NCBI GenBank assembly: GCA_051362555.1
Contig: CM120647.1
Location: 62,001 to 126,000, forward strand
Direction of reading: 5' to 3'
Length of the DNA stretch: 64,000 nt
DNA from: Lingula anatina
Lineage: Eukaryota > Animalia > Brachiopoda
This document shows, in pieces, positions 22,391 to 62,229 of this stretch. Made by a program: the position numbers and the translations under genes. Position 1 is the first letter of the stretch. Each line of letters starts with the position of its first letter. Under the pieces are notes generated by a model. That model made no database searches. It was not told the origin of the DNA and saw only the letters and a list, made by a program, of their open reading frames with translations.

Positions 22391-22719
22391 ATGTTGCGTT
22401 AAAATCAATTCACGGTTCAAGAGAGCAGGTGGCACACATCCCTGTCCAACTTCTCTACAGATTGGTCCGAATTTACTGCATTCGCAGTCTATCATTATTG
22501 CTAACTCTTGATCCCAGTCAAGGCTTTGTATAATTCTTAGATATTGCTGTGGTCTACATGATTGGCGCTAAATATTGGCAAAATTGCTCAGAAGGTGGAA
22601 AAGCACCAGGTTTGGCACTAATGAACTTTGTACTACCCTGATCATTACCAAAAATTACAAAGCGTTGCATAGCAACCGTTGCTAGGGAAGTGAAATACCA
22701 GTACTTTTTCACCTGGTTT

Positions 22720-23325
22720 GAACTCTCTGTTCCTGTACCAGGTGAAAAAGAATTGATGAGATTTCTAGGTATGGCAGGATTTTACAGAAAATTTTGCCCA
22801 AATTTTTCCTCTGTTGTTAGTCCACTTACTAACCTCTTAAAAAAGAGGGTGATATTTAATTGGACAAAGGACTGTGATGAGTCCTTCAGGAAAATTAAGG
22901 CAATCCTTATGAGTAATCCAGTTTTGTCAGCTCCAGATTTTGAGAGGCAATTTAAACTTGCTGTTGATGCTAGTGATGTAGGAATAGGAGCTGCTTTATT
23001 CCAGGAAAATGATGACAATGTAGATAGAGTTGTTTCTTACTTTTCAAAGAAACTTACAAAATGTCAGAAAAACTATTCTACTATTGAGAAAGAATGTCTT
23101 GCTTTGTTGTTAGCTTTACAACACTTTGATGTGTATTTGAATGTTACTTTACATCCTATTCTTGTCTACACAGACCATAATCCACTCACATTTTTGCACA
23201 AAATGTCAAATAAGAATCAGAGACTGACAAGGTGGAGTTTGTTGTTACAAGAGTATGATATTATTATTAAACATATTAAGGGCAAAGACAATGTCATTGC
23301 AGATGCCCTTTCAAGAGTGTCATAA
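22720..23325 (+). mobile_element. Ty3/Gypsy pol fragment (RT thumb/connection + RNase H)
   Basis: LMRFLGMAGFYRKFCPNFS, FKLAVDASDVGIGA, NYSTIEKECLA, VYTDHNPL, HIKGKDNVIADALSR*. Confidence 0.92.
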
Positions 23326-23852: not shown

Positions 23853-24224
23853 GCAGTCTTTCTACATTATTTCAACTAGACAATAAAAGACCAACTAGCT
23901 TGTTACTAAGGTAATTCACTTCCCTAGCAACGGTTGCTATGCAACGCTTTGTAATTTTTGGTAATGATCAGGGTAGTACAAAGTTCATTAGTGCCAAACC
24001 TGGTGCTTTTCCACCTTCTGAGCAATTTTGCCAATATTTAGCGCCAATCATGTAGACCACAGCAATATCTAAGAATTATACAAAGCCTTGACTGGGATCA
24101 AGAGTTAGCAATAATGATAGACTGCGAATGCAGTAAATTCGGACCAATCTGTAGAGAAGTTGGACAGGGATGTGTGCCACCTGCTCTCTTGAACCGTGAA
24201 TTGATTTTAACGCAACATTGTTGA

Positions 24225-25045
24225 TCACTATGGAATGAAAGTTTCGAAATGACCAGAACATCAACAATTTAAGATATGCAGACACTGTACTCATGCAGAC
24301 TCTGAGAAACAAATCCATAAAATCCTCAATACAGTATCAAAAGAAAGCGAGAAATGGGGACTGGAACTGGATGAAAAGAAAACTGAATGGTTGTTTCAAA
24401 GAAAAAAACAAATACCCAAATGCAATATCAGTTGCAAAGGAGAAAAAACAAGTATACCAATTAAAATATCTTGGGTTCGTGTTGACATTAGAATCGAAAT
24501 GTGACATAGAGACTAAGCAACGTATAGCAATAACAAAAGACAGTAAAATTTTACTAAAGAATAGAAACATCTCTATTGACACAAAAATAAGAACACTGAA
24601 ATCCTACTTTGGTCAGTCCTCTTGTACGGTTGTGAAAGCTAGAATATCTCCAACAGCACTAAGTAGAAACTGGAAGCTATTATACGGGAATGCGTTACCT
24701 AAAAATATTGTGGAGAATAGCCTAGGCAGATAGACAGACCAATGAAGAAGTGTTACAACTTGCAAGATTACAACGCTCACTGCTGGAAACAATCAAAAAA
24801 AGACAAATGGCATCTCTTACCAATGCCAAAAAGGAGACAAAATAGAAAAGCACGTACTTAGTGGGAAAATTGAATGGAAAAAGTAGAAGAAGACAAAGAA
24901 CACCATACATCAACGGCCTTAATCCTTTGCAAAAAACAATCAACGACAGACCAACAACGAGCCCATCCAATCAACTGAAGATAGAGCAAACTGGAGGATC
25001 ATGATCGATGATGCCTGCACCAGGTTTTACAATTAAAGAAGAAGC
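24225..25045 (+). mobile_element. RTE-clade LINE 3' fragment (right-arm copy)
   Basis: Mirror of 21575-22390; retains the EEVLQLARLQRSL segment shortened in the left copy. Confidence 0.75.
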
Positions 25046-27286
25046 TTATTCTTATAAAATATACGTCATTGATACCGACGATTGGAGGAAGTTTAGACCA
25101 ATATTACTCAAACAATAAAAGCATATTCCTTTTTCTGACCAAATGCTGATGATGTAGGTTTAGAAAAACATTGTTTGAGTCGTATACGCTCATTCTCAAT
25201 ATATAAGTCCATTTATTTTTTATTAAAGGAAACCAATTAAAAGAACTGTTTGTCCAAGTGAAATTAAACTAAAATCAGTCTGGCAATTTCAAACACAAAA
25301 TAAAAAAAAAAACTAGAATTATCTATTCCCATACAAAAACACAAACGGACTAAATTTTAAGTCTTCGTTATTGTCGCTCGCAGTACCATCTCACTATGTT
25401 GGGAACCTCCCTTTGAGCACAATTGGATCATATCTTTGGATAACGCTATCTGTAATACTGCTTCAAAGATCCCCAGGATCCATGTCTTAAATCCTGGACA
25501 CGGAAACGAATGAAACGACTCCATGTTGTTACTTCAACAGAATATATTTTACTACACTAACAGTTACATAGTACAAGCCTATCTCCCCTTCTCTCTCTCT
25601 ATCTGCTCCCCAGCGGGCATAGTGACGTTGGATGAACGTCGAAAACAGATTGATACGTTGAATTGCCGTTGATCTACCGAAATTCAACTTAAAATCAACG
25701 TTGATCCAGCAGCACGTCAAAACACCGTCATAATGTGACGTTGACTCAACGTTGTATTTTGGTCATTGACACAGCCTTGCAGACATGGATTGTAATTTAA
25801 AATATTAATTATTGAAAACGTGATACTTTGTTTATCAGTACTGTAACTAACTTTATCAAAATAATAAAAAAGGGGTTTAAAATAAAAGTGACAGTTGTTT
25901 TGTGTTTTAGTGAACTAGTGAACTTTCTTAACTTGTTATTCGACATGACAAAAACATTCAAGCCGGCCACAAGAATGGGTAAAAATATTTGGAATGCACT
26001 TGGAATTTTTGGAATGCTCTTCGAATAACCTGGGATTCACAAATAATTGTATTTTCGACGCCATTCTTAATCATTCCGCCTCTAGTGTGACGGGGGTATA
26101 AAATCCCGCCAGAATATTTCGAATGTGCCTCGGATGAGGTGAAATATTAATTTTGCCAGCAATCGAACTACACTAGTACGCCAATCAAAGTATATTCTAA
26201 ATATTTTTACTGCCTTCTGACAGCATTACAATTATTCCTAGTTTTCCAACTACATTCAAACTGCATTTGAGAGCTAAAACAGCCGAAAGTGCACTCATCA
26301 TTCCAGGCGAATTCAAGCGCATTCTGAGTATTCCAACGGTACTCTTACAATAATTATGGTCAATTCAAAAATTTTCCCGAATGTGGTGCGAATTTTTAAA
26401 ATTCTTCATTCAGCCTCATTCTTCTTGATTCCTGCTGATTCCAATTAAGTGACGGGGGTATTAGTTATGTTGCGTCCTGCATATTATTTAAGTTTGATCA
26501 CGTTTAGTTACAGATTAATTTACTTGGTTAATACTTTCTTTCAATTAGATTCCCATTTAGATCCATTTTTTTTTCTCTTTGATTTAGTTAATTAGTACGC
26601 TTTTGTATTTTCATTTATTTTATCGGTTATCAACATTTAGTTTTGACAGTATTATCAGCTATTGTTTAGTTTTCTGTTTTGAACCCTAGTTTTAGTTTAA
26701 TTATTTGATACAACGATTTGTCAGCCTTTTCTTAATTGTGTTTATTCATTTTCCGTTGGTCATTTCAGTTTTATCAATCCCGTTTAGTTCGTCAACGTTG
26801 TTTATTTATTTTTTTTTTATTTTGGTATTAGTACATTTCATTAGAATTTTGAGTTTAATTTTTTATTTCAGTTATAAAGATTAAACCACATTATCATAGC
26901 CTAACTCAAACCCCATCCTTTTTTTTCTGTTTGTTCTTTGGTTATTCAAACACACCTTTGCTTTGTCTGCCATTTATTGTGCTTACTGTATTCTGCTTTG
27001 CTTAAATTTGATTTGCAGTGTTGTGCTGTGCGTGTTGTTTTCTTTGTTAAACTTTGCAGTGACCTAACTTGTATATACACTTACCATTGTTTCAATTTAA
27101 ATTGAACTGTTTCTTTCTTTAACTGTAATAACATTTCTTTCTTGTTATTCTTTCCACCGGTTTCCAGTATTTTCAGCTTGAAACTTGTTTTATATTCTGT
27201 AAATATTGTCTACATTCCATACACTCATTTGACTTTGTGATTGGTTTTTGTACAAATTGTGAAATTGTGGGTTTGCATTCTTCATC

Positions 27287-33435: not shown

Positions 33436-34622
33436 GCTCACTTTCACTGGGAAAGCCTGACAATGCAGTGACCTTTGGTAGTTTGGCTGTAACGTAAGAG
33501 CAGTTCTGAAGGCAGGTTCTAACTATCATCAGATTGATTTGTGTTTGACAGATACAGGGAAGAAACAATAAAAGTGCTACTCAGACACGACGCACAAAGT
33601 CAGTGCTACCCATCAGACAAGACATCTGATTCATCACATTCCCTGACCATGAGGACAGGTGTAGACACTTCATGTGTCATGTTTGTTTGCCTAGTTACAG
33701 AGATACAGAAGTAAAACGGTTTTTCAGTAATGTCGATCCTTATTTGCATATTAAGGAAAATTGTGTAAATCTAATTCTAACAGTAACAGCTTAATAATGT
33801 TCCTCGACCCTGCAAATATAGGTAAAGACACTTCATTTGTCATATTCGCCTGTCTAGTTACATAGATATTACAGAAAATTGGAAGTCTGGCGTCCATTTT
33901 ATTTTTTTATTTTTTATTTATTATTATTATTTTTTTTTATTTTATTATTTTTTTTTTTTTTTGCAAATTAGACAGTTAAAAAGGCAATATTTCGCTTGGG
34001 AACCGGGTTAATGGGATTCAGCATGCTAATAAGCCTGCTTTCCAACTTTTAACCCAAAATGCCCCTTGCTTCTTATGCAGAGCCTTTTTCAAAAATCCCA
34101 CTTGACTACAACGCTTGGTTCAACTGTAACTTTAAGCATTATCTAATACCATTTTGTGCATGTTCATCGTTATTTACATTGGGATTTTCAATGCAATCTG
34201 TGAGTTGCAACTCTCATGGGCCTGAAGCTATGTTCTTATTGCCTGTTTTGCATAATATTCACCAATATTGATAAAATAACCTCGGGTAACTTAATTTTCT
34301 GTTTTTTGTCTGTGCATTCGATAGCTCTGCCGATTTGGTTTTATTTTACCTTCTGGGCCCTTTCTACTCAAAGATACAAAATAGGAGATGCAAAAAAATT
34401 AATAATGAAATAAATGTAAAAAACAATACCAGTGTCAACCTTTTTATTGGGTGAAGAAAACAACAAAAATTAAGACGGTTATCACAAACGAAGAAATCAT
34501 CATTTATTCAAAACTTTGGAAAGTACATTTTGGTGTTCGATTTCCAGGTTTATACTTTTTTATTGTAGTTAACCTGCCATAAGACTGCAATTGGTTGTTA
34601 TGCATCATACTATATATGCAAG

Positions 34623-37315
34623 CTAAATGTTTTTATAGTCGGTGAAATGAAATGAAGGCCCAACATTTGGGCCTTTATTAGGATCCCCGTTTTCGTATAA
34701 TGGAGTCCGTGCTAGTACCTGTCCCTGTAAAAGCAAGGCATGCATTAAACCTATGCAATCAATAATTTTTTTAGGCTTACCACTTAAACCTTGCTGGATA
34801 CAATGTATGAGACTTGTATACATTCTGCTAAAAACGTTAGTTAAAGTAAATGCTCTTGGTCGAACCCTATGCCCCTCTGGGTATGGCTGAGTTGCAAGTG
34901 ACCAAACCCCTTTTGGGTCAAAAGGTATTGACTGTCCATTATATTCATAGTGAGTGGCGCAATCTACCGATTCTTCCTTTTCTGACTGGTACAGATTAGA
35001 ATTACACGATTTTGTGACTTTTCGATGCTGTGTTCCAGGCGGGATTTCACTACAAGGTCCTGTTACACGTATCTCTCTCCCCTTGACAATTTGAGAAAAT
35101 TTGAAATAATGAGACAGATCTTTTTCTGCTGTCAAAGGCATGCACACATTGCTTCCTTCTCCTTGTTCTGTAATCATATCTATAGCCTTGATGGCTGTCG
35201 TTATGTTATAGATAGGAAATGGCTTTAAAGTTGTCGTCTTTCCATACCACATTGTTTCGTCTATTTGTTCAGACGGATTCCCCAAAAATATATCACCTTG
35301 TTTGGCAAGATTAATTAAAAGAAATTTTATTCTGTTATAAAAGGTCGGTATGCTGTTAGAATTGTTTCTGGAAAAACAGGAACGATCAATCTTAAATTGA
35401 TCTCTGGTGCAACTGTCAGCCGGAAGACTGTATCGTAATGCAGATTCAAATGGAAATATCGATTGTTTTTCATTACACTCAGTGGATAGAATCCTTTCTG
35501 GTTTTTCTATTTCCAAGAAAACAGATTCAATGTATTCTTTTGAAACACTCCGTAAAGAAATGAGCAAGTCCGGTCTTACACCACCGGGAAGTCTGGTGGG
35601 ATACGTAGGAAGAGAATTTTGGTTTGCCAGTACAGGGTCACCGCCAACAGCATTTAATATATTAGCTACCATTGTCATGTGTAGCATTTCTTGTACCAGA
35701 ACTGATCGTATGGTTTCCGCAATGTAAATGTTTGTTCCCTCTTTGATAGATATAAGTGCAGTCAAATAAGGAGGGATTGTGGTAAATTCTAGTAAAAGCG
35801 CCTGCTGGAGAAGTCGGCGGAGTTCTTCAACGGTATCAATAGAACCTAAAACTGGTTTTTCCAACCATTTGTTAAGCATCTCTACTTTACGCGGAGACAA
35901 ATCTCGTGTCACCGGCATGTAATGAGGGTGATCAAACGGTAGATTGAGTGTCCACCTAATCTTTTCTTTGTTGTGTATAACACTTTCATAATCTGTTAAA
36001 TGCACAAAACTATTCATAGCGGGGTAGAACTTACTGTATTGTTCGAAAATGGGAAGCACGTGTTGATACCAAGTCGGAACCTGGGGGATGACGTATTCTT
36101 TGAATATTTTTACAGCCAAAAACGACGTGGCAAAATGTGAATGTCTTTGTGTGTCTGTGAACTTAATAAACAGAAGAAAAAGTTGGGCATCTTGAAGTTC
36201 TATTCTACGGTGATATCGACCATTGACGACTGGGTCTTTGGTGCTGATTTTGATATGTGCTTTACCATCCGTGTCTGTCTTTACTGGTTGGTAAAACTTG
36301 AGTGCGGACTTTGGGTAACTAAAGCCACCGCTGCAAGGACCACAAATGTGATAGGAACAGGTACTTCTATTCCCAAAGTGTAAACTAATCTCTATACCCT
36401 CTACTGGATGACCAAACTGACTTGCAAACACGTCAAACCGCCAAGATTCATCAGGACTTTTCATGTAGGAATTGTTATACATCGCACCCACATTGATACC
36501 ATTCGTCAGCTCCATGAGAACTATTGTGCATATAGGTTTTCCTTTTACATAATTTAATTTGAACATAGATAAAGGGGCATATTCTATGTTTTGCTTGAAT
36601 GTATTTGACACGTTCAACGATAGCACACCTGCAGTATTATGGTATAGACCGGGTTCGCCATACTTAACCTCGACTGTGTCTGGTAAGTCCGAAATATCAC
36701 AATTAGACCCAATCCTATTGTCTGGTTTTGCTGAAATTCCTACATATATCCTACCGATGTCGGTTTCATTATAAAAGCCTTCTTCTGTTATCCGAAGGCT
36801 ATTTCCTATATCTATAGTTAGCAGTTGGCGGTTTTTGTCAAAGACAAACGGAATATGACAGAAAGGGAGTCCAAGACATTCTTCGTCTTTAGCCCTCATC
36901 ATTCTGGTAAATCTAGTGAACGGTATAGAATCTTTAGGATGGTGCTCCCCTATTGTCCCAACCAAACGTCCAGACAAAAACTGCTCACTATAATTTTCAG
37001 TATCATACATATCAAGATTGAACTTTACTGACAATGAACGCGGCAAATTATTACTAATCTCTTGTATAAAACGGGAATTATATGGGGCAGTGAACCACTC
37101 AACATCTGTTAAAACTGATTTTACTTGCACTGCAAGAGACCTTGCAAACATAACTGACGTTTCTGGGCACTTCAACCATCCTTGCTGTGTTGGCGTTGGC
37201 ACCAATTTTCCTCGGAAAACATTAGGTAACATCAAAGTCATACCATATATGGATGGGAAAGTATCACACATTGTATATATATCTACCATTTTAGCCGGCG
37301 CAGCTGCATTCCAAT
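34623..37315 (-). CDS. VioB-like gene exon 4 (2693 nt, includes ferritin-like domain)
   Basis: Acceptor CTTCTTTTGTAG|AT TGG; the long ORF of the track minus its first 9-10 codons. Confidence 0.92.
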
Positions 37316-40300
37316 CTACAAAAAGAAGATATGCTTCTTGCAAGACTGATTTGCTTCAAACTTACAGTGCCTTTATTCCTTAAAACTTATATGTGTTTGC
37401 ATTTACATCAGCCAAAGTAAAAAGAAGGTAAGCATTATACTTTTTAACACTGTACATATTCTGATAAAAAATCGGACTTTTTACATACTTTGCTAAATAT
37501 TTCAAATTTCAGATTTAACATGATTCAATAGAATGATATCAATATAAACATGTTATTCACATTGGCAATGTTTAAAGAGGACAACGATATCAATTACATT
37601 TTTTTAATTCAGTTTTCACCTGCATTTTCCTACCTTCAAATATTTGACCAATAACAGAATCACCTTCCTTGACACACGTTCTATCCGAATAACATACACT
37701 GGTAACAAATGTATCATAAAACATGAAGTTTCCAGAACCCTGAAAACAACAAATTCTACATTTCTGAATCACCATACATGCCTATATTTCAGCATGACTC
37801 TAGAAAAGCACTCAGAGAGCGCAGACCTCCGCCGAGGCAGCAAAGTCTCCATCCAATGCCCTTTCACCCCTAAATGTTCGATAATTTTGATTATTGTTTG
37901 ATAATTGATCCAGATCACCACCAAAAACTAAACATCTCTTTCTTGGTCTACTTCTGACAGTTCCTGAAAATTTCATCAAAATCGGTCCATAACTTTTTGA
38001 GTTATCTTGATGACAGACAAACAAACAAACAGAGAAACAGGGGTGAAAACATAACCTCCTTGGCGGAGGTAACAACAGTTTCATCGTTAAGATGATAAGT
38101 GTTTTTTGCATGGGTTAATTAATAATTTGGACAGGTGTACGTAGTCGTATATAGTGTCATATTGAAATATTGTGTTTAATTTGCCCTTTGTTACATGGCA
38201 AATACGCAAATTAAGACAATATATCTAGCTAATGTTTGCAGGCTTCTGCGTATAGTCTATGTTTTCTCGTTTTCGTGATTGTTTTGGTCTGTCTAATTTG
38301 CTGACGTATGGAAATGCCATTCTCGGACAAAATCAGTTGGCAAGCTGTATTAAACAATTATTGCGTTCTACATAACGTGCGGCACCTTTCAATCTGCATT
38401 AAAGGGGCATACAAACCGAGGGAGGGTGCTACCATAGTTGTTGAGATGATATAAGAGTAGAGTCTAAAATTGTTTATCTTAAATAATCATTACCATTAGA
38501 TGTATATATTATTCGTCAAAACGCGATTTTAACTTCGTTTTTTGTCTGTTCTTCGCGTTCAGTTTTACGCTCTGCTTTCTTCTAAAACGGTTTGAGCGCA
38601 CAATTCTTTCACTGCGCGCGCATCTTATACTACTAATACTATCAGGACTTTCTAATCAGCCCGGAAGCAACTGGCCCATATGACCATTATTTTCCCTATT
38701 ATTAGACGTGTCCTCGTTTTCAAAATGTACCTACCGCTCTAAGAAAATTATGGCATTAGAAGACGGCATGGAGAGGGGTAAGAATAACACTTGTTTATAC
38801 GTTGACTTTTAGAGTTTTACGTTAATAAACTGTGCAGAACGATGCAGAATATGTTTTACTTAAATTTTATACACCTAAGGAATATTCATGTATCTGACTT
38901 CAGCGAGTATTATCTGACTTCACTAGGTTGTATCAAAATGGCGTCACATAAATCTCCGACGTAAACACGCTTTTTGGAATAAAGACAAATGCAGCTTAAG
39001 GGATTATTTTTCTTTTAGATAGGTTGAGATTCATTTTCGAACATGTAAAATTTTTGGGATGGCACCAAACCTGTAACTTGTAAATTTTCAATATTCCCAA
39101 CAAGGTGTACATTTAGTGTGACGATCAGTGTCGAGTGACGCACTGATAACAATATTGGTCTCATATCTTGAATTTATGTCAGAATTAAATAGGGCCTACA
39201 TAACACTTGTTTTCTCGTGTTATTTCTGTGATTTGATTAAATTCGATGAAAGGCTTTGTAAATTGACCATGTGCTTGGTCCTGCACATGTTTGACGTACA
39301 TGTACGTACCGGTGTAACGTGACAGAGAGTCCACCATAACAGAGAGTCCGCTTCCTATTCATTTGTACATTTGTACTCGCCCTAGATTTTGACCCACTTA
39401 GGTCAGACTAACCCTAACCATTATAACTATAGGGAGGGCCCTCAGTTTCGTAACACCGGGATATGTATGCGCTCTCGTATGTGTGCAGGGGGATGGGGGG
39501 GTCTGTATTAACCTAAATACAGGGGCATGGATTAGATTTATTAACCATTTTTATACTCTCGTTGATTGAAATGACTTCATTGTCATACATTACTATTATT
39601 ACATTTATTTCAGTTCTTGTGTGCATGTGTGTGTAAATTTCCCCTGTGTGTTATTTTCAATCTTTAGACAAGTAGAATATATTCATAGTTGGAATATTAT
39701 ATGTTATTATTATTATTTTTAAAATTTTTACTAGGCTTAAATGAAGACCACATGAATGGAACCAGGATATGAATCTATTTGCCATGCCTTTATCTACAAC
39801 CCTCATGACAGTAGCCCCCATCAATTCCAAATGCTTTGCAACATAGAGCACCATGACACAACCTCTGGCATGCAATTAATTAAAGATATTCTTGACCTAT
39901 GCTGATGCTTATACTTATTGTTATTGTATCAATACAAGGTAGTTTAACCACTCAAAATGGTTTCAGTAGGTATGTACAGTTTAAAATACGTATATATATA
40001 ATAATAAACAACCGTATAAAGAAATGAATTTAAGGCACTTGGACAAAAATATACTGTGTCACTTCAGATGCAACAAAGATGGACTAGAATGTGACTAATA
40101 AGCAAGTTTTTGGAAGTTTTGATAATATATTTGTTAAATTGAAGAGTTACCTTTCTATTAAAAGAAATATCTTATGAACTGCAATGTGAATAAGTACTGA
40201 TATATATACTAATCACTATATGCTGTGAAAAAAAATTTTGATAAAATAAATATATTTGCATTTTACTCTTAGTAACAGTGTATTGATATTTGCTCTTGGG

Positions 40301-43300
40301 TTGAATGTTTTAGTTTCTTTGGTATACAAGTGTCTCAAATGTAAATAAAAATATTAAAACAATAAGAATTAATGAAATATAATACTTCGCTTTATTCTGT
40401 CGTTGCTGTTAGCTTTTCATCTTTTAATAAAATTAATTGATATACCCTACAAGTTAGCCTAATCAAAAATACCTATTTGCCTTAGAAAAATATGTAACAT
40501 TTATTAATATGAGCATCCTAACAATTTTTTCCCTGTTTCTTCCAACTCCAGGTTAGTATCAGCATGTCAATACATTTACAAAGCCTGGCTACTGATTGTG
40601 TGCTAGCGTACAAAAAAAGCCAAAACGAGGCTGGATAGCCCTTTATTGCCTCTGTTGACATGTCATTGCCTTCTCTATTATAATCCTACTTTTATTCGTG
40701 CAAGTTTTGTGTCGTACTTCTTTCTGTTTTTTATCCCTCTTATGTGCTAAAAAGTTTTTTGTTCGCATCATTCGCTGCATTGACTTGTTAAATTAGGGCA
40801 TTCACGTGGTACGCCTGCTCACTCGGCCTTCACCAATGGCAAATAGGTTGGGCAGTTTTCTCACACTTCTTCCCGCCCGTTCATTCATATGCTAGTATCT
40901 GAGTCATGTGACACGCAAGGTATGTTACAATCGCAGGATGTAAATGCGATTTTTAGTTCTTTATTTCAACATACTGGGTGCGTGTTAGACGTTAAATACA
41001 AATAGATCTTGTTTATTCGGAGTGTTTGATGCTGTGAAAGTGCTGTTTTTGTGAATAATTGTCAACTTAAACCGCTTTGTATGTCCGTTTAACGTTGTCA
41101 TATAACACCTTCATCCTCGGTGCAGGGGAACAGAGTTTGGTTTTTATAGTGATTCGGTGTACGAGATGTTTGAATACCGAATCGTAAAAACTTTTTTCTG
41201 GATTCAATTTTGCCAGCTTTGCACTTGGTTAATCCAAGGTGCCACACTTGCTCAGCATATTCTCGGGTAGGTTTTACATTAGACGTACAGATTTTCAGAA
41301 ATCCATGAGACGAAAAATCCGCTCTTTTTAAAAATCTTATGAAATGTATCCTCTGACAAACTTTTGTGTAAATGCGATTGATATGGATTTCCCAATTTAG
41401 ATCTTGACTTATATTGAGTCCCAAGAATACGCAAGAATTCACTTTGTCTATTGTTTTACCATCAATTGTTATTTGCTGGAGTGGATGGCTAGAGTTTGAG
41501 AAATCGAACCGTATCTCTTTTGTTTTCTAGGAATTTAGGAACATCTTGTTTTCTTTTGACCAACGGTTTCTGCTGCGGCAGAATAATGCGAAATACGATG
41601 ATTAATCGTTTGAGATACATTCCATTACGCTGCTAGTTCGTCACTATAACGCTGCATATACGCTATACATGCGCTACCTACAGGTATTATCAAATTACCG
41701 CATTTGTAGCGTAGCTTAATCGTCGTGTGAGTGGCGTATCCTTAGCATGTGTGTAACGACTGGGTAACGTACAACTCAAATGCATGCATACACTGAACAT
41801 TTTTTAACATGCTCAAAATTCTTCTTTTTTTTCCAGCTGCATAACTAAGAGAATACCAACGGCTGCATGGGTATGCAAAACGAATACGGCGTGTTAACAA
41901 TTAACGAACCCACTGCGTTTGTTTGCCTATTTCATACATGTTGCAAACAAATGCAAAAGATAGCTTTCACACCAATTGCCGTCTCAGAAGACAAGATCTA
42001 TAAGTCAGTTTGGAAAAATAAGAACATACTGAAATACTGGGTAAGGCCGAGGATTGCAAGACGCACCTTGTATAACGATTACGCATGATTAATAAAAAGA
42101 TCTTGAACTTGAAAATCAGGAAAGCTTAATTTCCTTCAAAAGAATTAAAACCATCCATGATTTACGAACTTTTGAACAGACCACATCCACGACGAACGAA
42201 ATAGCATACAAACTTTCCCAAACAGGACACGCATATAACCTGTAAACATCCGCACTTCTCAACAAAAACAAACATAATAATAGTGATGATAATAATAATA
42301 ATTAACTTTATTTAAAGAGGGTAAAACATGGTAAATGCATACACTTATCTTACACATGGTCCTCTAGAGGGTTAAAATGAGATATTGTGTTAATGAATTT
42401 TCCTTTGTTTTTTTAAACAATATTTTAAAAGTATCCAAGTCTTCAGAGTGTAGGCAGTTTCATATTTTAATCGAGGTCTATATTGGGCCTTTAGTTTATA
42501 TGCCTTTATGTCTGACAACTGGTAAATAGAAATTTCCCTTATTATTTGATCGGGTGATTCTGCCTGTAGTGTCTATGGTTGTAGTTCCCAGTGAGTCTTT
42601 GATGTATTTAGGTGAGAGTTCACTTAAAGATTTAAAAACTAATGTGGCTTTCTTAAATTCTATCCGTTCATAGATTGTTTGCCATTTTAGTTTCTTCAAT
42701 AGTTAATTTGTTGGATATTATTTGGCTTCTTTTTCTAGGATTTCGAGAATGCTTCTTGCTCCACGTTTCTAAAGTTTGTATATTTTTTCTAGTTTTGCAC
42801 AGCTGCTCCATATGATGGAGCAGTAATCCAGATGTGGTAGTATATGTGCATTATAAAACAGTGCCCTTGTTTCCAGTGTTAAGTATCGTTTTAGTTTGGA
42901 TAGAAGGGAAAGTTTACTGTTAATTCTTTTTTCAAGTTTATGCACATAGTCATTCCAGTTAAGATTTTCATTAATATATACACCTTAAAGTTTTTCTGTT
43001 TGTACATTATCTAAAATGTCCCTGTTAAACATTACCTTTAAACAAAAGATATTAGACTCCTGCAGAACGTGTAAGGAATTATTTTTTATAATGAAACACT
43101 TTAGATCACTACACATATGATTTCGTATTGTATTTACAGAGGAAACGAATAGGCCCTACCTTTCATCTAATATAATTGACTTTATGTAATTGTCTTTAGA
43201 AAATTATTCTTAATATGTACCATAAACATTAATTCCTGTTATAAGGGAACGTATATTATCATTTTTTTCTTTAAAAAGCCTCCGACGGGATGATGGGAAG

Positions 43301-45580
43301 TGCTATAGAAGTTATGTTTCGGATAGGACCATAAGTTCTGGTCAGCTGAATATACGGAAAAAATGATTGGATATTTTATATTGCTTTTTTAATGTTAGAT
43401 GCAAATATTTATTAGCCTTCTTTTTTAAACAAATAATAAATATCAAGCAATTGGATTATATTTTTATTTTAAATGCTTTTCACCGGGTATTCAAATAATA
43501 TCTAGAGCCAGTTAATTTCTGACTTTCAATCTTTCGGATCTGAAGCTGTAACCAGTTCTAATAAAAATTGACTGTGTATTAAGTTAGACAAAAACAAACA
43601 ATCAATTTATAACTCGGTAAAGACATGCTTCTCTACTGATGTATCTTTTTTCAAATACTTTTATGTCACTAACAGCTGTCATTATCGTTCAATTGCACCA
43701 TACCAAATTAACAAACAATACAGTACAATGTCCAAAGTGTTCAAAATGCCTAACATTTCGGTAGATTGCCTGAAATTTAATTTATCCTAGGTCAGTTACA
43801 ACCATTCGTGGTCCACGTATGCGATGCACATGTACAAGAGTGTAATTTTGGAGGTGGACCCCTCTCAGACGACAGGAAAGGGAAACCCGGTGACGATCCT
43901 AAAATTGTAGAGGTACTTTGGCCTCGTTATTTCCATTTGACTCTTTTGAACTCTTCCACCAAAAACAGTCATCACACCTGAGATAATTTCGTTAAAGCCA
44001 GTCAAGGTCCTAGCGTTATGTAACCTTCCTACCCGGAGCTCAGGGCAACGGTAACAAACATTGGTGTCCCTGTATCTAGTTTTATTGATAGACCGTTTAT
44101 ATCGGACATTGCCATGATCACTTACGCTTACTAATGGATTTACGGCACGCAGAAATCAGCACGATTCCCTATAAAATCTAGGCCTCTGAAGGAGAGAGAG
44201 AGAGACCCCGGGAGATCGTCACGACTGTCCATGCCTGCGTGCCAGCCTGTAGCCCGTATGAGTGGAATAAAGATTACCTGAAACACAATTCTATCTGTTG
44301 TGTATTCAAGCCGCCGTTCTCTCATAAATTAGTAACCCACCTAGGTTACATATAGCTGACATTTGATCACCTGGTAAGAGGCTGTAACTTGACTTATTTT
44401 GCCCACACTACACTCAAACTATCAGTCTTGTTCACTGACCACTCTGCCAGAAGTGCGCCATTATTCAGTTAAAGATTTAAAGGTCGTTTAGTTCTGACCA
44501 CCCGTGCCAACTCGTGAAAGATGGTGGTATATGTAAAGTGTGTTGAAATACAACGTCCTGATGCTTGAACTGACATACAAACCGCGCAAGTTAAAATAAA
44601 ACAATTAAAGACGAGAAAATATCGAGTTAAGTACACATGTGAAAGGGCTATTATCAAACATCTAAATCAGTGGCCATGATTTATTAACCAGAACTAGAAA
44701 TGGGAGATCGGGATCCATAAAATGCCAGGGGATTGTAACCTGTGAACAGTGCCAGGTAGAGGCAAGGTTACTCTTGATCAACATTACGAAGTTTTATGTA
44801 TAGGCTTTCACATATCGTTTCCATCCATTCGATTAGATAATTCGACAGAGGAATTATTTCTTTGCAAGGTTGTCGAAATAAAAAGCATATACCTCGCCAA
44901 TGAAGTATTAATAAAGCATAAATGTTGCCTTAAAGCAAATCTGTAAACAGTGTATAGGAACTTACTGTACCTCGGGATTGAAACCTTGGACATCGGGGTG
45001 AAGTCGAGGCCCTTGGTTGATGGTGGTGTTAAAATTTTTTAACATATTATTGGCCGTCATTGGATCGGCATAGAATCTACCCGCAAAATGTAGCCGAGGG
45101 AACCCGAGGTAAGAATGTTTGGATCCTGTAAAACATCCCAATTTAAAATATTAAATATTTACCTAACTACATTCAATCAGGTATCGACATGAGATAAACA
45201 AAAGAAACATAGATAAAACTTACGAATATGTATGTATAAACTGCATTGACTGCATTTTGCAATGTAATGAAAGAGAAATACCGAACATGGTGCTGTTGTC
45301 CTAACAGACTTTATCATAGGTTAAAATTTTTAAAGGGGGTGTAGCTAACATATATCACTGTTTTACATGTTATATGTGGCTAAGTAGTTTTCTGATGAAC
45401 AATGTCTCTTTTCCGCAACTCACAACTGCTTACTATTGAAAATTCAAATTTTGAAAACCTGACATTTAATACTACAGGGAAATGCTTACTGGCATGTTCG
45501 TCGTCGGTGTTAATGAGAGTTGCGGACATCAACCATAAACTGTAAATGACCTGCAGTGCGACAAAACTGCTTCCAGCCAT
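34623..45580 (-). CDS. Secreted VioB/RebD/StaD-like protein (imino-arylpyruvate dimer / chromopyrrolic acid synthase family, ferritin-like domain), 4 exons, 1014 aa
   Basis: join(complement) 45580-45490, 45125-44971, 37739-37634, 37315-34623; all introns GT-AG with matching phases 1,0,1; total 3045 nt with no internal stop. Family motifs: SYLGFPRLHFAGRFYADPMTANN, FNPEGSGNF, PAKMVD, YSKFYPAM, HYMPVTRDLS, LQQALLLEFTTIPPYLTA...EMLH, EQGEG, SHYFKF. AATAAA signals downstream (~34560, ~34505). Confidence 0.9.
37634..37739 (-). CDS. VioB-like gene exon 3 (GSGNFMFYDTFVTSVCYSDRTCVKEGDSVIGQIFE)
   Basis: TTGTTGTTTTCAG| acceptor, GAAG|GTAGGA donor; phase 0 to 1. Confidence 0.85.
37797..38072. mobile_element. 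Non-autonomous Helentron/DINE-like (HINE) element in intron 2
   Basis: Subterminal inverted repeat CCTCCGCCGAGG / CCTTGGCGGAGG, terminal hairpin ACCTCCTTGGCGGAGGT, (CAAA/GACA)n microsatellite. Confidence 0.6.
41040..41570 (-). mobile_element. L2/CR1-group LINE RT C-terminal remnant
   Basis: FLGLNISQDLNWEIHI...EYAEQVWH. Confidence 0.75.
42290..43040 (-). mobile_element. L2/Crack-type LINE 3' remnant
   Basis: GVYINENLNW...FYNAHILPHLDYCSIIW...LKWQTIYER; AATAAAG + (TTA)n tail. Confidence 0.75.
43841..44350 (+). mobile_element. Possible solo LTR
   Basis: TGTAA...TTACA ends, GC-richer than flanks, AATAAA near 44265; no clear target duplication. Confidence 0.3.
44971..45125 (-). CDS. VioB-like gene exon 2 (SKHSYLGFPRLHFAGRFYADPMTANN...GFNPE)
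   Basis: GTTTTACAG| acceptor, GAG|GTACAG donor; encodes the conserved N-terminal PR-x-HF-x-G motif of the family; absent from the ORF track. Confidence 0.88.
45490..45580 (-). CDS. VioB-like gene exon 1, signal-peptide-like (MAGSSFVALQVIYSLWLMSATLINTDDEHA)
   Basis: GTCATGG start, hydrophobic core, GCCA|GTAAGC phase-1 donor matching the exon 2 phase. Confidence 0.72.
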
Positions 45581-46175: not shown

Positions 46176-47307
46176 CACTGAGAATAAAATCGGAGTCCAA
46201 GTGACTCCAAACTTGGAGTTCAGCAGTGGTGCCTAAAATAACTCCCAATTGGAGTCAAGTTGACTCCGATGGAGTAACGCCATTCCAGACCCCACAGGAG
46301 AGTCACAGTTGACTCCATTCACACATCCCTTCATCCCTTGATTTACCTCTACAAAAGAGTCACCATGACACCATATTAAAGAATTTTTAACTCCTTGGCA
46401 CATTATGAAAAAAGAACATCAACAGTGCCAAGCGGGGAGACAGCAGGTACCGTTTATAAAGGACTGGTATGTCCCCGGACGGGTTAGAACCCACGTCCTC
46501 CCGCACCGGTGGCGGTCACTCTAACCACAAGGCCATCTGGTCGCATGTGGTATTGCGGCAACAATAAAATAGTTTGTAAATCTGGTAATAAACAGCATAA
46601 CATATGTATACCACAAATGTACCAGTGAGTGAGCATACCTCCCCAGAGACATGCATTCAAACATACCACATGGAAACAAAGCTTGCTGACCTGTATACCA
46701 ACATATCACATTGGCTCTGCCAATATTATGTTTTGTATTTTTCTTAGTCGTACTATATCACTATTTAATATAATTCATACTTATTTATAAGTGCAATCCT
46801 ATTGTACATTTTCATCTACCCACGTAGATGCATACGATACAATGAATAAATGCATATATACGTAAAGAGCGTGGGCAACTGAAAGCTGGGGCCAGTAATA
46901 AGTGCACGAGTTCTGCATGCAGAAACACACAGAAAAGAACTTGTTCATGCATAAAACCCACTATGGCCAATAAAATAATGTTTATACTGACAAAGGGTGA
47001 TGAAAACTATTCTCTCCACGCCGTCTGCTCACTGCCATCACAAGCACTGAAACGAGCCCTACTGTCCAGCAAGCGAAAAGAGTCGGTAAAAGGGGTCAGC
47101 CAGACACTGGCCCCCAGTAATTTGACTCTGATTTTAGAGTCAGATTGACTCCATGAGAGCCAGGGGGTGGCTGACTCTGATAAGAGAGTCTAAAGACTCT
47201 GGTAGTGGGGTAATTTGACCCTTATATAGGAGTTAAATTAACTCTATGCGGGTCAAGTGGTGCTGGACTCTGACTAGAGTGTCAAATGACAAATTTTATT
47301 CTCAGTC
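46176..47307. mobile_element. CACT-terminated (EnSpm/CACTA-like) non-autonomous element
   Basis: CACTGAGAATAAAAT ... ATTTTATTCTCAGT TIRs; many subterminal GACTC/GAGTC repeats at both ends. Confidence 0.6.
46395..46540 (-). mobile_element. tRNA-derived SINE fragment
   Basis: A box TGGCCTTGTGGTTAGAG, B box GGGTTCTAACCC, followed by a core-like ...CATACCA...GGTACCTGCTG...GCTTGGCAC. Confidence 0.7.
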
Positions 47308-53422: not shown

Positions 53423-56400
53423 ATGGGATTGTTTGGGAGTTCTTCGCCATTTGATCAGGATGTTGGTGAGTTCGATTTTTAGGTGTTTATCTTTTTGTTG
53501 TACCTGAACGACTTCAAACTCTTATCAGTCCGTTAGTATGCAAGAATCCTAGGTAAATTCATGTCTCTCCAACAAAAATATTCGGCGATATCCTAACTGT
53601 GACTCATCGTCATACGAAAAACAGTGAATAGGCTAATTTTATTCCAGAAATAGATCTTAGGCCTTCCCCACTTGATCTAAGAACCACACAAGGCTTTTGC
53701 GCTTTGGACACTGAGACAGGCGCTTGCGACTTAAAGCTGCAGTCAGTGAAATCGTAGCCCAATCACGCTCAGTTGTCACCTTGATCAGTCGATGATATAT
53801 AAACCCGCACTTAGAGAGTTTGGTGTACACTGCAGTAACTAAAGAGAGCAAAGTGTTCATACACAGGAAGTCACACCATCAGAGCATAACTGGAATTAAA
53901 TTGAAGTCTCTGCATTACCACTTTTATATTTTACTTACTGTACCTTTTTTATCTACAGTATGTGCTAATTAGTGAAAAATAAAGGTAGTACTTTGAAATC
54001 ACACATGCAGGCTTACAAAGGCAGGGTATTGTAATGGATTTTAGGTACTTAAGTAATGATTGTAGCAATATTTATCACTCTCTTTGAAACAAAAAATTTT
54101 GTAAAACAGCTTCATTTTTCTCTCATCCCAAGAGCAATGTCAGGCTGCTTGCCACAGGTCATTGGCTGTGTAAAGACCTGGGAACAATTCTTACCCTGGT
54201 GTGGTAGTTAAAAGAATGATCTGGTCATAGATGGGGGACAGCTGGTATTTACCTTGTCTCTATTCAGGGTGGGATCCTGTTGTCTGATGTGTACTGCTTC
54301 TTTGACTTTCCCCCTGGTCCATTGTTGCTCTCTGGCTAGGGCTGTGGTGGCCTGTTTTTATACAATATTCACCTATGTCTATGTGGTAGTCTAGGTTGCA
54401 GTGTTCCTGTAATCACTGTCTCAGTGTCTGCTAAGTTTCTGCTGTGTATTTGTATGTTGGACCAGAGTCACATCATATGGTAGATGGGGCCACATACTTA
54501 GTCTTTGGTTGGCTTAGTTTTGGAGTGCAACAAGGCTGAGAGCAGGGTGTTGGTTGATTTATGGAACATATGGATGCCATGTGACCTGTTGGTCCTCCAT
54601 AATTTCTCAGACATACCTATTGACAAAATAGAACTTTGTGATATGAAGAAGTTGAACTGTTTGTTTGTGTTCCAGAGAAGGCCACCAGTGAAATGAACAC
54701 CACTGAAGACTGGGCTCTCATTATGGAGATTTGTGACAGAGTTGGCCGGGAACAGAATGGGTAAGAATAAAGGTTATAGTGTGTGTGTCAATGTGTGTGT
54801 GGGTGGGTGGTGATGGGGGACAGATTTAGACACAAGTTGTTGTTTAGTAGGGAGGAGAAATAGTCAAAAGTTAGAGTGCATGTGTGGAGGAGGAGAAGAA
54901 GGAGAGAGAGAATTAGATACAAGTTAGATTGTGTCAGTGTTGGAGGAGGGCTTGTGTGGGGGAGAGGAGACCATCAGGGAATTGGCAGCATCACTTTTTA
55001 AGTGGGGTTCGCCATATTTATTTGGCAGATCAGTTAGTCTGTGGATCATGTGTTTTGAGTGTACTCTGTGAGGGTAGCCTGAATTAAAGGTACATACGAA
55101 GCGAGCATCGGTGGAGCGTGGATTCCCAGTAACACATGTAAACCACTTCTACTAGATTCTTATATAACTCAAATAAATTCGATCAGTTAGCCTGTGGATC
55201 ATGTGTTTTGAATGCGTGATGTGTGAGGGTGGTTGGGGGTAAGAATTATATACAAGCTAATATCAAGGGGTACTTTAGGGTGGGGTCTGTGAATGCAGAT
55301 GTCATTCTTGTATTAATTTAAAAGTGTAAATAAAATACTCAACTCAAAAATTGCTGTAATAAGATATTAGTATAGATGTGTATCAGCATTATGGTTATTT
55401 TTTCCAGACCCAAAGATTGTCTTAGAAGTATAATGAAGAGGATTAAACACCAGATTCCACAAGTCTCAATGCAAGCTATCACTGTAAGTGGCTGCAATGC
55501 GAGACTCTCGCTCTTTTCAAACTGTGTCAAGATGGCTGACAACCCAGGTTGAACAGGGGACAATTAATATGATTATTTTTGCAAAATTGATTGAGGCCAT
55601 TTATCTTTAGCTCCTAATTTTGTGGCTCAAACCTTTTTAGTGGTCTGCATCAAGATCCTGGCTAAACCCCTGTCAATGTCTTAGAGACCATTCCCACAGA
55701 TATTTAGATCGATCTATTCCCCTGGGGAGTATCACTAGATATTGTTGTCAGCTTAACTGGCTCTAATGTCTGTTCCGCCTACTAAAAGCTATAAGGGGGT
55801 AATTAACTTTCATGCGTGCTTGGCTCCCAGAAGCTGACAGCAATTTAGCGTGAACCCCCAGGAAGTTAGGTCTGAACCCCCAGGGAGTTAGGTCCATCCA
55901 GATGACTCGTTCTAAATATATTTGGGAACCTAGACTTTGACCTCTTGAACTGAATATGTTGAAAGTAATTTTACCCAAAACTTTTGTCAATTTAGTTTCT
56001 TTATGTTAACATGTATTTTTTTGTTACTCACTTACCTAGAAACATTTTAGGCATAATTTTTATAAAATATCATAAATATTACTGACACATTGAAAATCTT
56101 TTCTTTTCTTTTCAGTTTTACAGTAAGTTTGATATATTTTGACAAGAGATTCAGAGAATATAAATTGTTTCTGTTTTGATTAATTGCTGGTCTTTTTGAA
56201 TTGATAGTAACATTTCATTGTGTGAAGCATATGTTCATCCAGAAGAAAAAACAAATTAATATGTAGTTGTCTGACTTTGCTTCTTTCTTATTCTCAGCTC
56301 TTAGATTCTTGTGTCAGCAACTGTGGACATACGTTTCACCTGGAGGTGGCCTCTCGTGATTTCAGCTCAGAGGTCAAGGCTGTCCTCAGTGGCAAGGTAC

Positions 56401-59400
56401 AGTGATCTGTGGGGTAAACTTCCTGTCTACACTTGGGCCATTTGTATCAGTGTTTCCACATGACAGCACTGCTTGTTTTAACATTTCAGATATGCTGGCA
56501 GCTTTGGTGGAGTGTGCAATGTTTCATTTCAGAAGCCATGTGTAAGATGGGTTGGCAACAAAATTGTTTCAGTTCTTATTCTGGGAGTAAACCTGGATTG
56601 CAACCTGCCCCCCCCCCCCCCCCCCCCCCACCTACCAAGTGCAACTCTCCCCCCCCCCCCATTGTGTTGACCACTGACCCTCAGTAGATGCAGGGTTGCA
56701 ATCCTGTGTTGACTACCTGGTGTCAGGGCTAAACATGGTTGTTGTCTAATCTCCACTGTACCCACAGTGACAGTGCCACACTGGCTGCTAGCTGGTTATC
56801 CTGGAAATTAAGAAACATGTATATATACAGTAAACTATTTCCTAAGATCCAGCTGCCATCTAGGGTACTGCCAGTGTGTGTTTACCAGAACTGTCATGTC
56901 TGCATGTTGATATTGCCACTGTAATATTGCCACTGTCACATGGTCAACTCAAAGGTTCTTCTTCTTCATCATAACTGGACATAGCTGGACACTACCACGT
57001 CTCTGGACAGGAAAGGCTGCATATAGCAACACAGTTCACTGTGGAAATATGTTTGAAACTGGTCAAATATATTGTGTGATATAGTCCACCACCTCTATCA
57101 AATTTTGGGTTTTGATTCTCCGTGCTGATTTCTGGGAGGTGAAGCAATGTGTATTGAAAAAGGGAACACATGAAATTTTAACATAAAGGTCATAAAAGTG
57201 CAGGCCTCTAAAACTTTGATTTATTTTCAATCATAACATCTGAAGTAATAACAAGTATTAAAAACCACAGCAGAGAAGCCCCTTCTAATTAATAACAATG
57301 TGTTCTAGTGTAAAGTGTCTTACACAACAAAGCCGTCTGTATGACCTTGTTTTGTAATGAGGCACAAAAGTTTGTATCCTGTGTTATGTCCAGTTATGGT
57401 GCTTCATATGATGGGATGGATCTGTAGTGGCCATGATGACTCGGGTATTTTTTACTGTTGCTTGAACTCACTGGTCACGTTGCATGTTACTTTAGCTCCT
57501 GGACGCGTGTGTCAGCAACTGTGGGAAGGTATTTCACCAGCAAGTCGCCAGCAAGGACTTCACTGACGATATCAAACCTTGTATAATGGGAAAGGTTAGA
57601 ATACAAGCTTACTTACTTTACTGACATCTACTGGCAGGAGAGGAAGTTAACTGGCTTAAACAATATTATACATGGTTGTACTCACAAACAGAGAGAGAGG
57701 GGGGTATTTTTCTGAAAAGAATTGTATCACTTGTAAAAAAGTTTTGATAAAAGAGTTTCTAAGTGAAGAAATGATCTTTGTGAATATTATGTTTACAAGA
57801 CCCGTGTCCATAGTTAGAATTTGTCTGCATGGCTGTAAATGTACTGTTAAATGTTATCTGAGGCAAACACCACTCCCCAATGTTAATAGGATCAGTAGTC
57901 TACTGGGTGTAAATGTAGTATTAAATGTTATCAGCAACCAGTATGCTGTTAGAAGTTCTGGATTTGAACATCTGAGACAGCTGTGAAGCTCACAAATCTA
58001 CGATAACAACTAATTTCTCTCTTTAGTTTTGGTAACGACACTGGGTTTCATTTTACACAAAACTTTGCTTAGCTAAACAGTACTTAGCAGTCTTTAAAAT
58101 ATTATGTAATGGTTTGTAAGGATTAACTCACTTTAATTTAACTTAACAAAACTGTATAAGAGGGTGAAAACTAGTGGCTGAATTTTGAGATCAGAAAAAA
58201 GAGGTGAGTGGTCTTACAGGATCTCTGTGAAATGCCACTTAGTCATAAAAGACATCTGATCTTAAATTCTGTTATTGAGAATGTTGTCAGTACTTGCATT
58301 GATGTTCTATCTCTGATGATTAGTTTGTCTTTTCAGCAGGCACACCCTAAGGTGGCAGAGAAGCTGAAGGAAATGATTAAAAAGTGGGCAAAAGGAGATT
58401 TTAAAAGTGACCCGTCATTAAGGTAGGGATAACACCACTGGTAGACATATCAACTTATTGTCTTACTGTTGTATACAGCATGTAATTGAAATAATACTAG
58501 GAGATCAGATACTGAAGATTTGTTATGAGAGCCTACTGTAGACAGATAATTATTACTCCTTTATTCACAAATGAATGTTGACTGACCAAAGTGTGTTTTC
58601 TCTTTACAGTTTGATCCCTCAGCTGTACCGCAGTCTGAAGGCAGAGGGCCACAGTTTTACCTCCTCAGATACAGTAAGTCTTCCTTTGCTTGGGATGGAG
58701 GTAGGGGGGGTTGTACCACAGTCTGAAGGCAGAGGGCCATAGTTTTACCTCCTCAGATACAGTAAGTCTTCCTTTACTTGGGATGGAGGGAGGGGGTTGT
58801 ACCACATTCTGAAGGCAGAGGGCCATAGTTTTACCTCCTCAGATACAGTAAGTCTTCCTTTACTTGGGATGGAGGGAGGGGGGTTGTACCACAGTCTGAA
58901 GGCAGAGGGCCACAGTTTTACCTCCTCAGATACAGTAAGTCTTCCTTTGCTTGGGATGGAGGGAGGGGGGTTGTACCACAGTCTGAAGGCAGAGGGCCAT
59001 AGTTTTACCTCCTCAGATACAGTAAGTCTTCCTTTGCTTGGGATGGAGGGAGGGGGTTGTACCACAGTCTGAAGGCAGAGGGCCATAGTTTTACCTCCTC
59101 AGATACAGTAAGTCTTCCTTTGCTTAGGATGGAGGTAGGGGGGTTGTACCACATTCTGAAGGCAGAGGGCCATAGTTTTACCTCCTCAGATACAGTAAGT
59201 CTTCCTTTACTTGGGATGGAGGGAGGGGGGTTGTACCACAGTCTGAAGGCAGAGGGCCATAGTTTTACCTCCTCAGATACAGTAAGTCTTCCTTTGCTTA
59301 GGATGGAGGTAGGGGGGTTGTACCACATTCTGAAGGCAGAGGGCCATAGTTTTACCTCCTCAGATACAGTAAGTCTTCCTTTACTTGGGATGGAGGGAGG

Positions 59401-62194: not shown

Positions 62195-62229
<35 letters not shown>

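Follow-up and report, generated by a model that had tools for sequence, protein, structure and literature searches.

A VioB-related gene of Lingula anatina points to an ancient animal family of candidate heme/di-iron oxidases

We analysed a 64,000-nucleotide stretch of Lingula anatina DNA (Brachiopoda; GenBank assembly GCA_051362555.1, contig CM120647.1, positions 62,001 to 126,000, forward strand), referred to below as the window. On its minus strand lies a four-exon gene (45580-34623) encoding 1014 amino acids (aa). Its product, the window protein, to which all aa numbers refer, is distantly related to VioB and points to an overlooked ancient animal enzyme family, less to a domesticated oddity. 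The comparison set consists of 10 VioB genes above the TIGR04492 cut-off and 10 Streptomyces loci that we label StaD-type, meaning a TIGR04492 score of 649-830 and an adjoining StaO-like oxidase, and not the named enzymes RebD and StaD.

The four-exon gene and the domains of its product

Exon 1 (45490-45580, 91 nt) contains the start codon and a signal-peptide-like leader (aa 1-30), and ends at a GT donor of fitting phase. Exon 2 (44971-45125, 155 nt, aa 31-82) carries the family N-terminal motif SYLGFPRLHFAG, which corresponds to VioB from residue 1 on, and exon 3 (37634-37739, 106 nt, aa 83-117) carries the animal-specific C98 and C104. Finally, exon 4 (34623-37315, 2693 nt) holds aa 118-1014 and the stop in a 910-codon open frame. 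AG before and GT after are present at every exon edge that needs an intron, and the joined exons give 3045 nt, that is 1014 aa plus stop, without internal stops in the splice and frame check. Candidate poly(A) signals are present as four AATAAA hexamers at 34345-34564 (minus strand), 60-280 nt beyond the stop.

In tblastn, a Lingula homologue maps to 45120-44977 (69%), 37739-37635 (51%) and 37316-35544 (48%), which are exons 2, 3 and 4, and the exon 2/3 and 3/4 joints are ungapped in the alignment. This homology covers exons 2-4, while exon 1 is placed solely by splice phase and hydrophobic sequence. The four-exon gene is real. The initial annotation, made from the letters alone, had the four GT-AG exons, their matching phases and the 1014-aa frame right. 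As for its motifs, seven of eight tested patterns match as written, and the one given as LE...Y is really LE-x6-Y (LEFTTIPPY).

The structural model of exon 4 (predicted local distance difference test, pLDDT, 77) shows an N-terminal half dominated by beta strands, followed by a small helical and then a ferritin-like domain. The beta region begins in exons 2-3 and occupies aa 118-521 of exon 4 (36105-37315). It is all-beta in the model, with only weak generic beta-sandwich matches as part of the whole model, no Pfam family and no usable match in the ESM Atlas. It is possibly a substrate-binding or docking part.

The ferritin-like domain (34647-35810) matches the full PF12902 model at aa 620-861 with 180 bits (gathering cut-off 22.3; E 8e-53), as the initial annotation had expected of this profile, and its fold match reaches aa 1007. 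It superposes on Caulobacter CC_0557 (PDB 3hl1, also PF12902) with Z 26.4 and a root-mean-square deviation (rmsd) of 2.5 over 254 aligned residues. The likeness concerns the fold of the C-terminal domain, as CC_0557 is a stand-alone 317-aa domain without beta region or Met-Met domain. On the four-helix bundle lies the set E627, E660-x-x-H663, E721, E837 and H853, in which E837 and H853 depart from the canonical ExxH spacing. Conservation among 243 aligned relatives is nearly complete (E627 in 242, E660 in 241, H663 in 242, E721 in 239, E837 in 230 and H853 in 238), and all six residues are present in 10 of 10 VioB and 7 of 7 StaD-type rows. We take them as candidate ligands of a di-iron pair.

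The middle helical domain (aa 522-612, 35832-36104) resembles cytochrome c without CxxCH, a heme attachment motif that is absent from the window protein and from all relative rows shown. Folded alone it reaches a pLDDT of 92. In a VIA structure search of 48,161 chains the best match is the monoheme cytochrome PccH, with a Z of 6.7 that falls below the tool's caution line of 8 (rmsd 3.0, 77 aligned). Eight of the top 20 rows carry a cytochrome title, and two more are presumably cytochromes too. Against 25 PSCyt1 domains (planctomycete-type, PF07635), the profile match scores 28.6, whereas 30 column-shuffled controls never exceed 13.2 and the reversed control reaches 8.0; this template was chosen by eye, its 25 domains were kept by a pattern including MP..L..W, and the hhalign probability is only 63% locally and 30% globally. 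This alignment pairs M584 with the distal Met and brings M551 to no more than two columns from the His of CxxCH. Class I-type c cytochromes are the best structural and profile match, with the distal MP motif and the terminal helices aligned, but the similarity is modest and the window protein has a Met at the His position. Foldseek returned nothing at E<=0.001 for this domain, no cytochrome appeared among Pfam and PDB sequence search results with its alignment, and the ESM Atlas gave no usable match.

Both methionines are almost invariant. Met551 (codon 36015-36017) is kept in 241 and Met584 (35916-35918) in all 243 aligned relatives, including every one of the 10 VioB and 7 StaD-type rows. 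Since VioB carries heme b (PMC9705886), the middle domain would be the natural heme site, and Met551/Met584 a candidate Met/Met heme b site. A full-text literature search, limited to main texts, found no cytochrome-fold heme domain described in VioB. Just behind this domain the gene is split into two open reading frames in 21 of 75 bacterial loci. An architecture with both cofactors is, in our judgement, probable.

The middle domain also aligns weakly with the quinoprotein oxidases LodA and GoxA (Z 3.3 and 3.0, 86-88 residues), and fungal PF12902 genes adjoin lodA, according to PMC4417212.

A rival explanation of the two sites gives the protein no synthetic role: outside the cell it would remove peroxide or handle iron, in the manner of a catalase, Dps or bacterioferritin. 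The C-terminal domain indeed matches Dps, bacterioferritin and Mn-catalase folds (Z 10-13), bacterioferritin combines a bis-Met heme with a di-iron site, and most bacterial relatives lack biosynthetic neighbours. VioB itself shows catalase activity (PMC9705886). However, simple detoxification would need neither the 500 residues of the beta region nor the collinearity with coupling enzymes along the whole length, both of which the protein keeps, and the family is strongly expanded in sponges. We consider a purely protective role rather unlikely.

Relation to VioB and history in animals

Aligned by hhalign, the window protein and VioB match with probability 100 (E 2e-39) over 790 columns, aa 34-1007 against VioB 1-944, at 20% identity in this profile-profile alignment. 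BLAST against VioB and StaD-type proteins finds 20-26% identity, starting only at about aa 534. The exon-4 frame scores 22.1 bits on TIGR04492, the VioB equivalog model with a cut-off of 1250, and exons 2 and 3 contribute no match; a true VioB scores 1908. By these alignments, the homology to VioB/StaD is real, full-length and distant. The initial label of a "VioB/RebD/StaD-type" enzyme therefore holds as far as whole-length homology goes, and fails as group membership, with 22 bits against 1250 and a place across a long 100/100 branch. An orthologue of VioB, RebD or StaD is ruled out by the same score and branch.

In terms of layout, the window protein shares with VioB the collinear span aa 34-1007, the N-terminal PRxxFxG motif, the three-part arrangement and all eight candidate ligands (two Met, six Glu/His), which align to identical VioB residues. 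It differs by its leader, extra cysteines and introns, and by lacking a vioA/vioE context. Furthermore, a 27-aa VioB insert after aa 643 is missing, and there are inserts of 40 and 45 aa instead. StaD-type proteins keep the candidate ligands in 7 of 7 rows and are matched by the family profile at E 1e-16 to 1e-30, but BLAST identity is just 22-26%, only from about aa 534, and they sit on a separate tree branch. The named enzymes RebD and StaD differ further, acting in the cytosol with a Trp oxidase and a P450 as partners (PMC10851217). The nearest non-animal relatives are uncharacterised bacterial "ferritin-like" proteins of about 900 aa, with 28-33% identity over most of their length, from Chitinophaga, Undibacterium, Chromobacterium, Acidobacteria and Actinomycetota. 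These have no leader and few cysteines, and are often split in two genes.

Among the best 120 of 324 matches, a Lingula protein comes first (48%), followed at about 30% by Ptychodera, Oculina, Branchiostoma, Glandiceps, Saccoglossus, Dendronephthya, Montipora and Desmophyllum, intermixed with the bacterial proteins at a similar 30%. Corticium, Oscarella, Dysidea, Sanderia, Styela, Ciona and Clavelina have further members, and more than 100 mostly unnamed proteins among the 120 of 240 matches listed group with Dysidea in a demosponge clade. No vertebrate, arthropod, nematode, mollusc or echinoderm name occurs among the matches listed, most of which are unnamed, with 6759 representatives passing E 0.001. 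Likewise, no non-animal eukaryote is named among the 21 matches to protein P0175, a query chosen for the sister group.

Trees were built from rows picked for spread and length: 100 rows with FastTree, 51 with IQ-TREE (LG+G4) and 31 with a mixture model. All named animal proteins and the window protein form one clade, with support of 99, 99/99 and 96, respectively. This clade subdivides into demosponges, homoscleromorphs, cnidarians (100/97) and bilaterians (99/96), in an order that follows the animal tree, and the window protein is sister to the Lingula homologue (100/100). In the 51-row tree, VioB and StaD-type rows sit on one side of the long 100/100 branch. The nearest relatives outside the animal clade are bacterial or unnamed. 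Two quick trees place the animals inside bacteria, and the 51-row tree does not settle the base; a placement of the animals as sister group of VioB/StaD is not rejected (approximately unbiased test, p-AU 0.099).

Because the trees give one animal clade and shared animal-only cysteines support one origin, the family was likely inherited vertically since at least the sponge-eumetazoan ancestor. Any transfer would predate that split. A bacterial transfer into the animal stem is likely, as the simplest reading of trees that compare animal with bacterial and unnamed proteins, and the family was likely lost later in many animal lineages.

The initial annotation had instead proposed a VioB/RebD/StaD-type enzyme, probably gained horizontally and then domesticated, with a hint of host-made pyrrole or bisindole alkaloids or pigments. 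Taken as a recent bacterial gift of a bisindole synthase to this lineage, such a history would fit the full-length homology to VioB, and also the p-AU of 0.099 with its open root. The broad vertical distribution within animals speaks otherwise: the nearest relative is Lingula at 100/100, within a clade ordered like the animal tree, and the approximately unbiased test rejects a separate transfer (p-AU 0.013), modelled by placing the window protein, the Lingula homologue and P0148 among the non-animal rows. These results largely refute a recent or lineage-specific transfer, and with the 22 bits on TIGR04492 they leave the proposal as a whole extremely improbable.

Two further observations concern other members. 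Proteins P0133, P0146, P0147, P0150, P0154 and P0159 form a well-supported clade inside bacteria, some with long N-terminal extensions, and could be a second, independent eukaryotic acquisition. The jellyfish Sanderia has a protein (P0165) on a long branch that has lost several candidate metal ligands, possibly a non-catalytic copy.

The animal proteins are likely secreted, since they have leaders, more cysteines, N-glycan sites and TSP1/EGF/FN2 modules, unlike bacterial members. We scored the leader with a hydropathy heuristic, whose threshold of 1.9 was set at the window protein's own value (hydrophobic window 1.91), the weakest among animal rows. Under this threshold a leader is found in 18 of 22 bilaterian, 9 of 10 cnidarian and 3 of 3 homoscleromorph rows, versus 0 of 17 VioB/StaD-type rows. 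Just 14 of 107 demosponge-clade rows pass, most of which are unnamed gene calls that may miss the first exon. Bacterial homologues begin at the conserved motif without a leader, and the 84 bacterial rows compared were chosen for starting there. As for cysteines, C98 is present in 29, C104 in 25, C903 in 20, C956 in 19 and C971 in 19 of 32 animal rows, against 6, 0, 0, 0 and 0 of the 84 bacterial rows. N-glycan sites are more numerous in animal than in bacterial proteins, and members from Ciona, Dendronephthya and Branchiostoma are fused to TSP1, EGF or FN2 modules.

These same features can be read differently, with the secreted heme/di-iron protein cross-linking matrix, through protein-bound Tyr/DOPA in tunic, tube, shell periostracum or spongin. 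The leader, Cys pairs, N-glycan sites and matrix-module fusions fit that role, as do the more than 100 members in the demosponge clade, the lack of an amino-acid oxidase partner (window and 80 loci) and a transcript missing from eight RNA runs, which would suit a narrow tissue or stage. Nevertheless, cytosolic-type bacterial relatives share the catalytic residues, some of them in small-molecule clusters with P450, glycosyltransferase or halogenase genes, and the localisation is purely predicted. Matrix cross-linking seems to us rather unlikely.

Surroundings and transcription of the gene

The VioB-like gene is surrounded by remains of transposons, and a STAM gene on the plus strand (53423-63165) faces it head to head. 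The VHS and SH3 exons of STAM match Pfam, and RNA shows one of its GT-AG junctions spliced. Because of these remnants and this neighbour the gene is animal DNA, and the earlier exclusion of bacterial contamination stands. Intron 2 (37740-44970, 7231 nt) contains an inverted-repeat element (37825-38070), matched by many RNA reads that derive from other copies, and degenerate pieces near 41101-41526 and 42772-42984. The insertions first described there, as a long interspersed element (LINE) and a miniature inverted-repeat element, are thus present in form; the pieces are presumably LINE-like, a label without Pfam support, as Pfam returns only a weak ALKBH8_N match.

Transcription was assessed in eight of nine same-species raw-read runs (all but X6), from three studies, of which 6-30% each was read. 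Neither exon depth nor any of the three junctions predicted by the initial annotation (45490/45125, 44971/37739 and 37634/37315) was found in this sample. The STAM exon 1-2 junction served as positive control and was seen in all four runs that covered it (48, 18, 4 and 2 reads); the control applies to those four runs and not to the remaining ones. RNA depth in the bin containing exon 3 stems from a repeat starting at 37800, not from the exon. The gene is thus silent or rare in the sampled runs.

It could follow that the copy in this animal is a silent or decaying relic, a suggestion to which the missing exon reads, the weak leader and the repeat-laden 7-kb intron all lend something. Against it stand 910 codons that read through without a stop in a genome of 37% GC, along with undamaged splice sites, the full set of eight candidate ligands and a branch length (0.46) equal to that of Lingula (0.43). 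We hold a silent or decaying relic to be improbable.

Some observations on the rest of the window are given here in their own right. Two tandem 99-nt exons of STAM (56298-56396 and 57496-57594, plus strand) are both flanked by AG and GT, and both align to VHS positions 66-96; judging from sequence, they are likely spliced in a mutually exclusive manner. Also in STAM, 58743-60022 holds many tandem copies of about 30 codons, which translate like the exon end at 58611 and the adjoining intron. Upstream of the VioB-like gene, a short repeat (46424-46537) collects thousands of reads of run X3 from another locus (bin depth about 1000), and appears to be a highly expressed SINE-like or small-RNA-derived element with its source elsewhere. 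Lastly, 20500-22530 and 24079-26036 form a long inverted duplication around a Gypsy-like reverse transcriptase/RNase H fragment (22642-23322).

Gene neighbourhoods in bacteria and proposed function

A profile search for StaO/VioA-type oxidases found none in the window and none at 80 near-relative bacterial loci (51 of them with at least 14 kb). The same profile matches 12 of 12 VioB/StaD-type control loci, five of which seeded it. This absence argues against plain bisindole synthesis, although in animals the genes of a pathway may well lie apart. According to PMC10851217, the coupling enzyme of characterised clusters is accompanied by a flavin Trp oxidase and a P450.

Other neighbours at the near-relative loci include P450 (5 of 80), glycosyltransferase (3 of 80), aminotransferase-methyltransferase (3 of 80) and ebo genes (14 of 80). 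At eight actinobacterial loci (L013, L014, L015, L021, L022, L024, L038 and L044), a P450, a glycosyltransferase, an aminotransferase-methyltransferase fusion, halogenases or a non-ribosomal peptide synthetase are found, with a tryptophan-halogenase-family gene at L015. Neighbours of these kinds indicate that part of the bacterial subfamily is probably biosynthetic. As the subfamily scores only about 20 bits on the VioB model, the actinobacterial clusters are invisible to it, and they are possibly unmined pathways. A flavoprotein at L015 (PF01593) was rejected as an amino-acid oxidase, with just E 2e-4 over 38 positions on the StaO/VioA profile; we take it to be of phytoene-desaturase type.

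Two side observations concern conserved neighbourhoods. The ebo-adjoining genes (L001, L003, L006, L027, L029, L031, L032, L037, L039, L040, L042, L047, L057 and L062) belong to Undibacterium, Flavobacterium, Pedobacter, Nitrospirillum and Streptomyces/Kitasatospora. In bioRxiv 10.64898/2026.05.21.724671, ebo is tied to thallusin, with the oxidative ring-cleavage enzyme missing, and the VioB-like, predicted heme/di-iron protein is a candidate tailoring oxidase in strains that bear ebo. In a second conserved operon, a stand-alone ferritin-like half is followed by a pyrroloquinoline quinone-type beta-propeller gene (L048, L049, L051, L053, L058, L063, L065, L068, L070, L072 and L002), mostly also with an NHL/SGL propeller and a lipocalin-like gene.

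The reading we favour, which we would call close to an even matter, is a secreted heme/di-iron oxidase that couples small aromatic substrates. The leader would direct the protein into the secretory pathway, where the animal-specific Cys pairs and N-glycans would stabilise it. Met551 and Met584 would hold heme b without a covalent bond, closing the site at six ligands, so that it would be fit for electron transfer and not for O2 binding. The ferritin-like domain would hold two irons through E627, E660, H663, E721, E837 and H853 and take O2 or H2O2. Two substrate molecules would each give one electron, passed via the heme to the di-iron site, and then join through a C-C bond, by analogy with the indole-pyruvate imines in VioB/StaD. 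This coupling chemistry is described for VioB (PMC9705886 and PMC10851217). The extracellular substrates may be pyruvates with an aryl or indolyl group, the corresponding imines, or related phenols, supplied by a separately encoded oxidase or transaminase; a transaminase could provide the aryl-pyruvate without an oxidase. A tryptophan-derived bisindole as the actual product is unlikely.

Several points weigh against a secreted coupling oxidase. The cofactors and the activity are predictions for every member of this subfamily. Lingula, amphioxus and Ciona are, to our knowledge, not producers of bisindole or pyrrole alkaloids. Most of the 47 flanking genes scanned are housekeeping genes without a link to this pathway or of no recognised function, which adds to the missing StaO/VioA oxidase. 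On the same side stand the 20% identity and 22.1 bits relative to VioB, the modest PccH and PSCyt1 scores of the middle domain with its template picked by eye, the empty Foldseek, Pfam, PDB and ESM Atlas searches, the weak leader under a heuristic threshold, the few demosponge leaders, and the lack of exon and junction reads.

What is new at this locus is the signal-peptide-like N-terminus, which the initial annotation missed, along with the animal-specific cysteines, the cytochrome-like Met/Met domain and the ferritin-like domain with its six Glu/His residues. Databases auto-label some animal members [quoted passage not shown], so animal sequences are on record. A literature search covering largely open papers and main texts finds no characterised animal member, as had been assumed from the start.

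Regarding mechanism, the comparison singles out two Met and six Glu/His residues in VioB, RebD and StaD, for which PDB searches returned no structure and PMC9705886 states that none is available.

For the aryl-pyrrole and bisindole alkaloids found in sponges and ascidians, the family provides host-encoded candidates, with members in Dysidea, Oscarella, Ciona, Styela and Clavelina. A bolder proposal, which we put forward as doubtful, is that animals have had secreted VioB/StaD-like coupling enzymes since their origin, multiplied in demosponges and retained in ascidians, corals and hemichordates, that these are the missing host makers of the diarylpyrrole (lamellarin/ningalin-type) and bisindole alkaloids of sponges and tunicates, by joining aryl- or indolyl-pyruvates, and that electron transfer throughout the VioB/RebD/StaD class links a Met/Met heme, seated in a cytochrome-c fold, with a di-iron site. 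For the animals themselves, the window protein adds an ancient, patchily kept gene family of likely bacterial origin.

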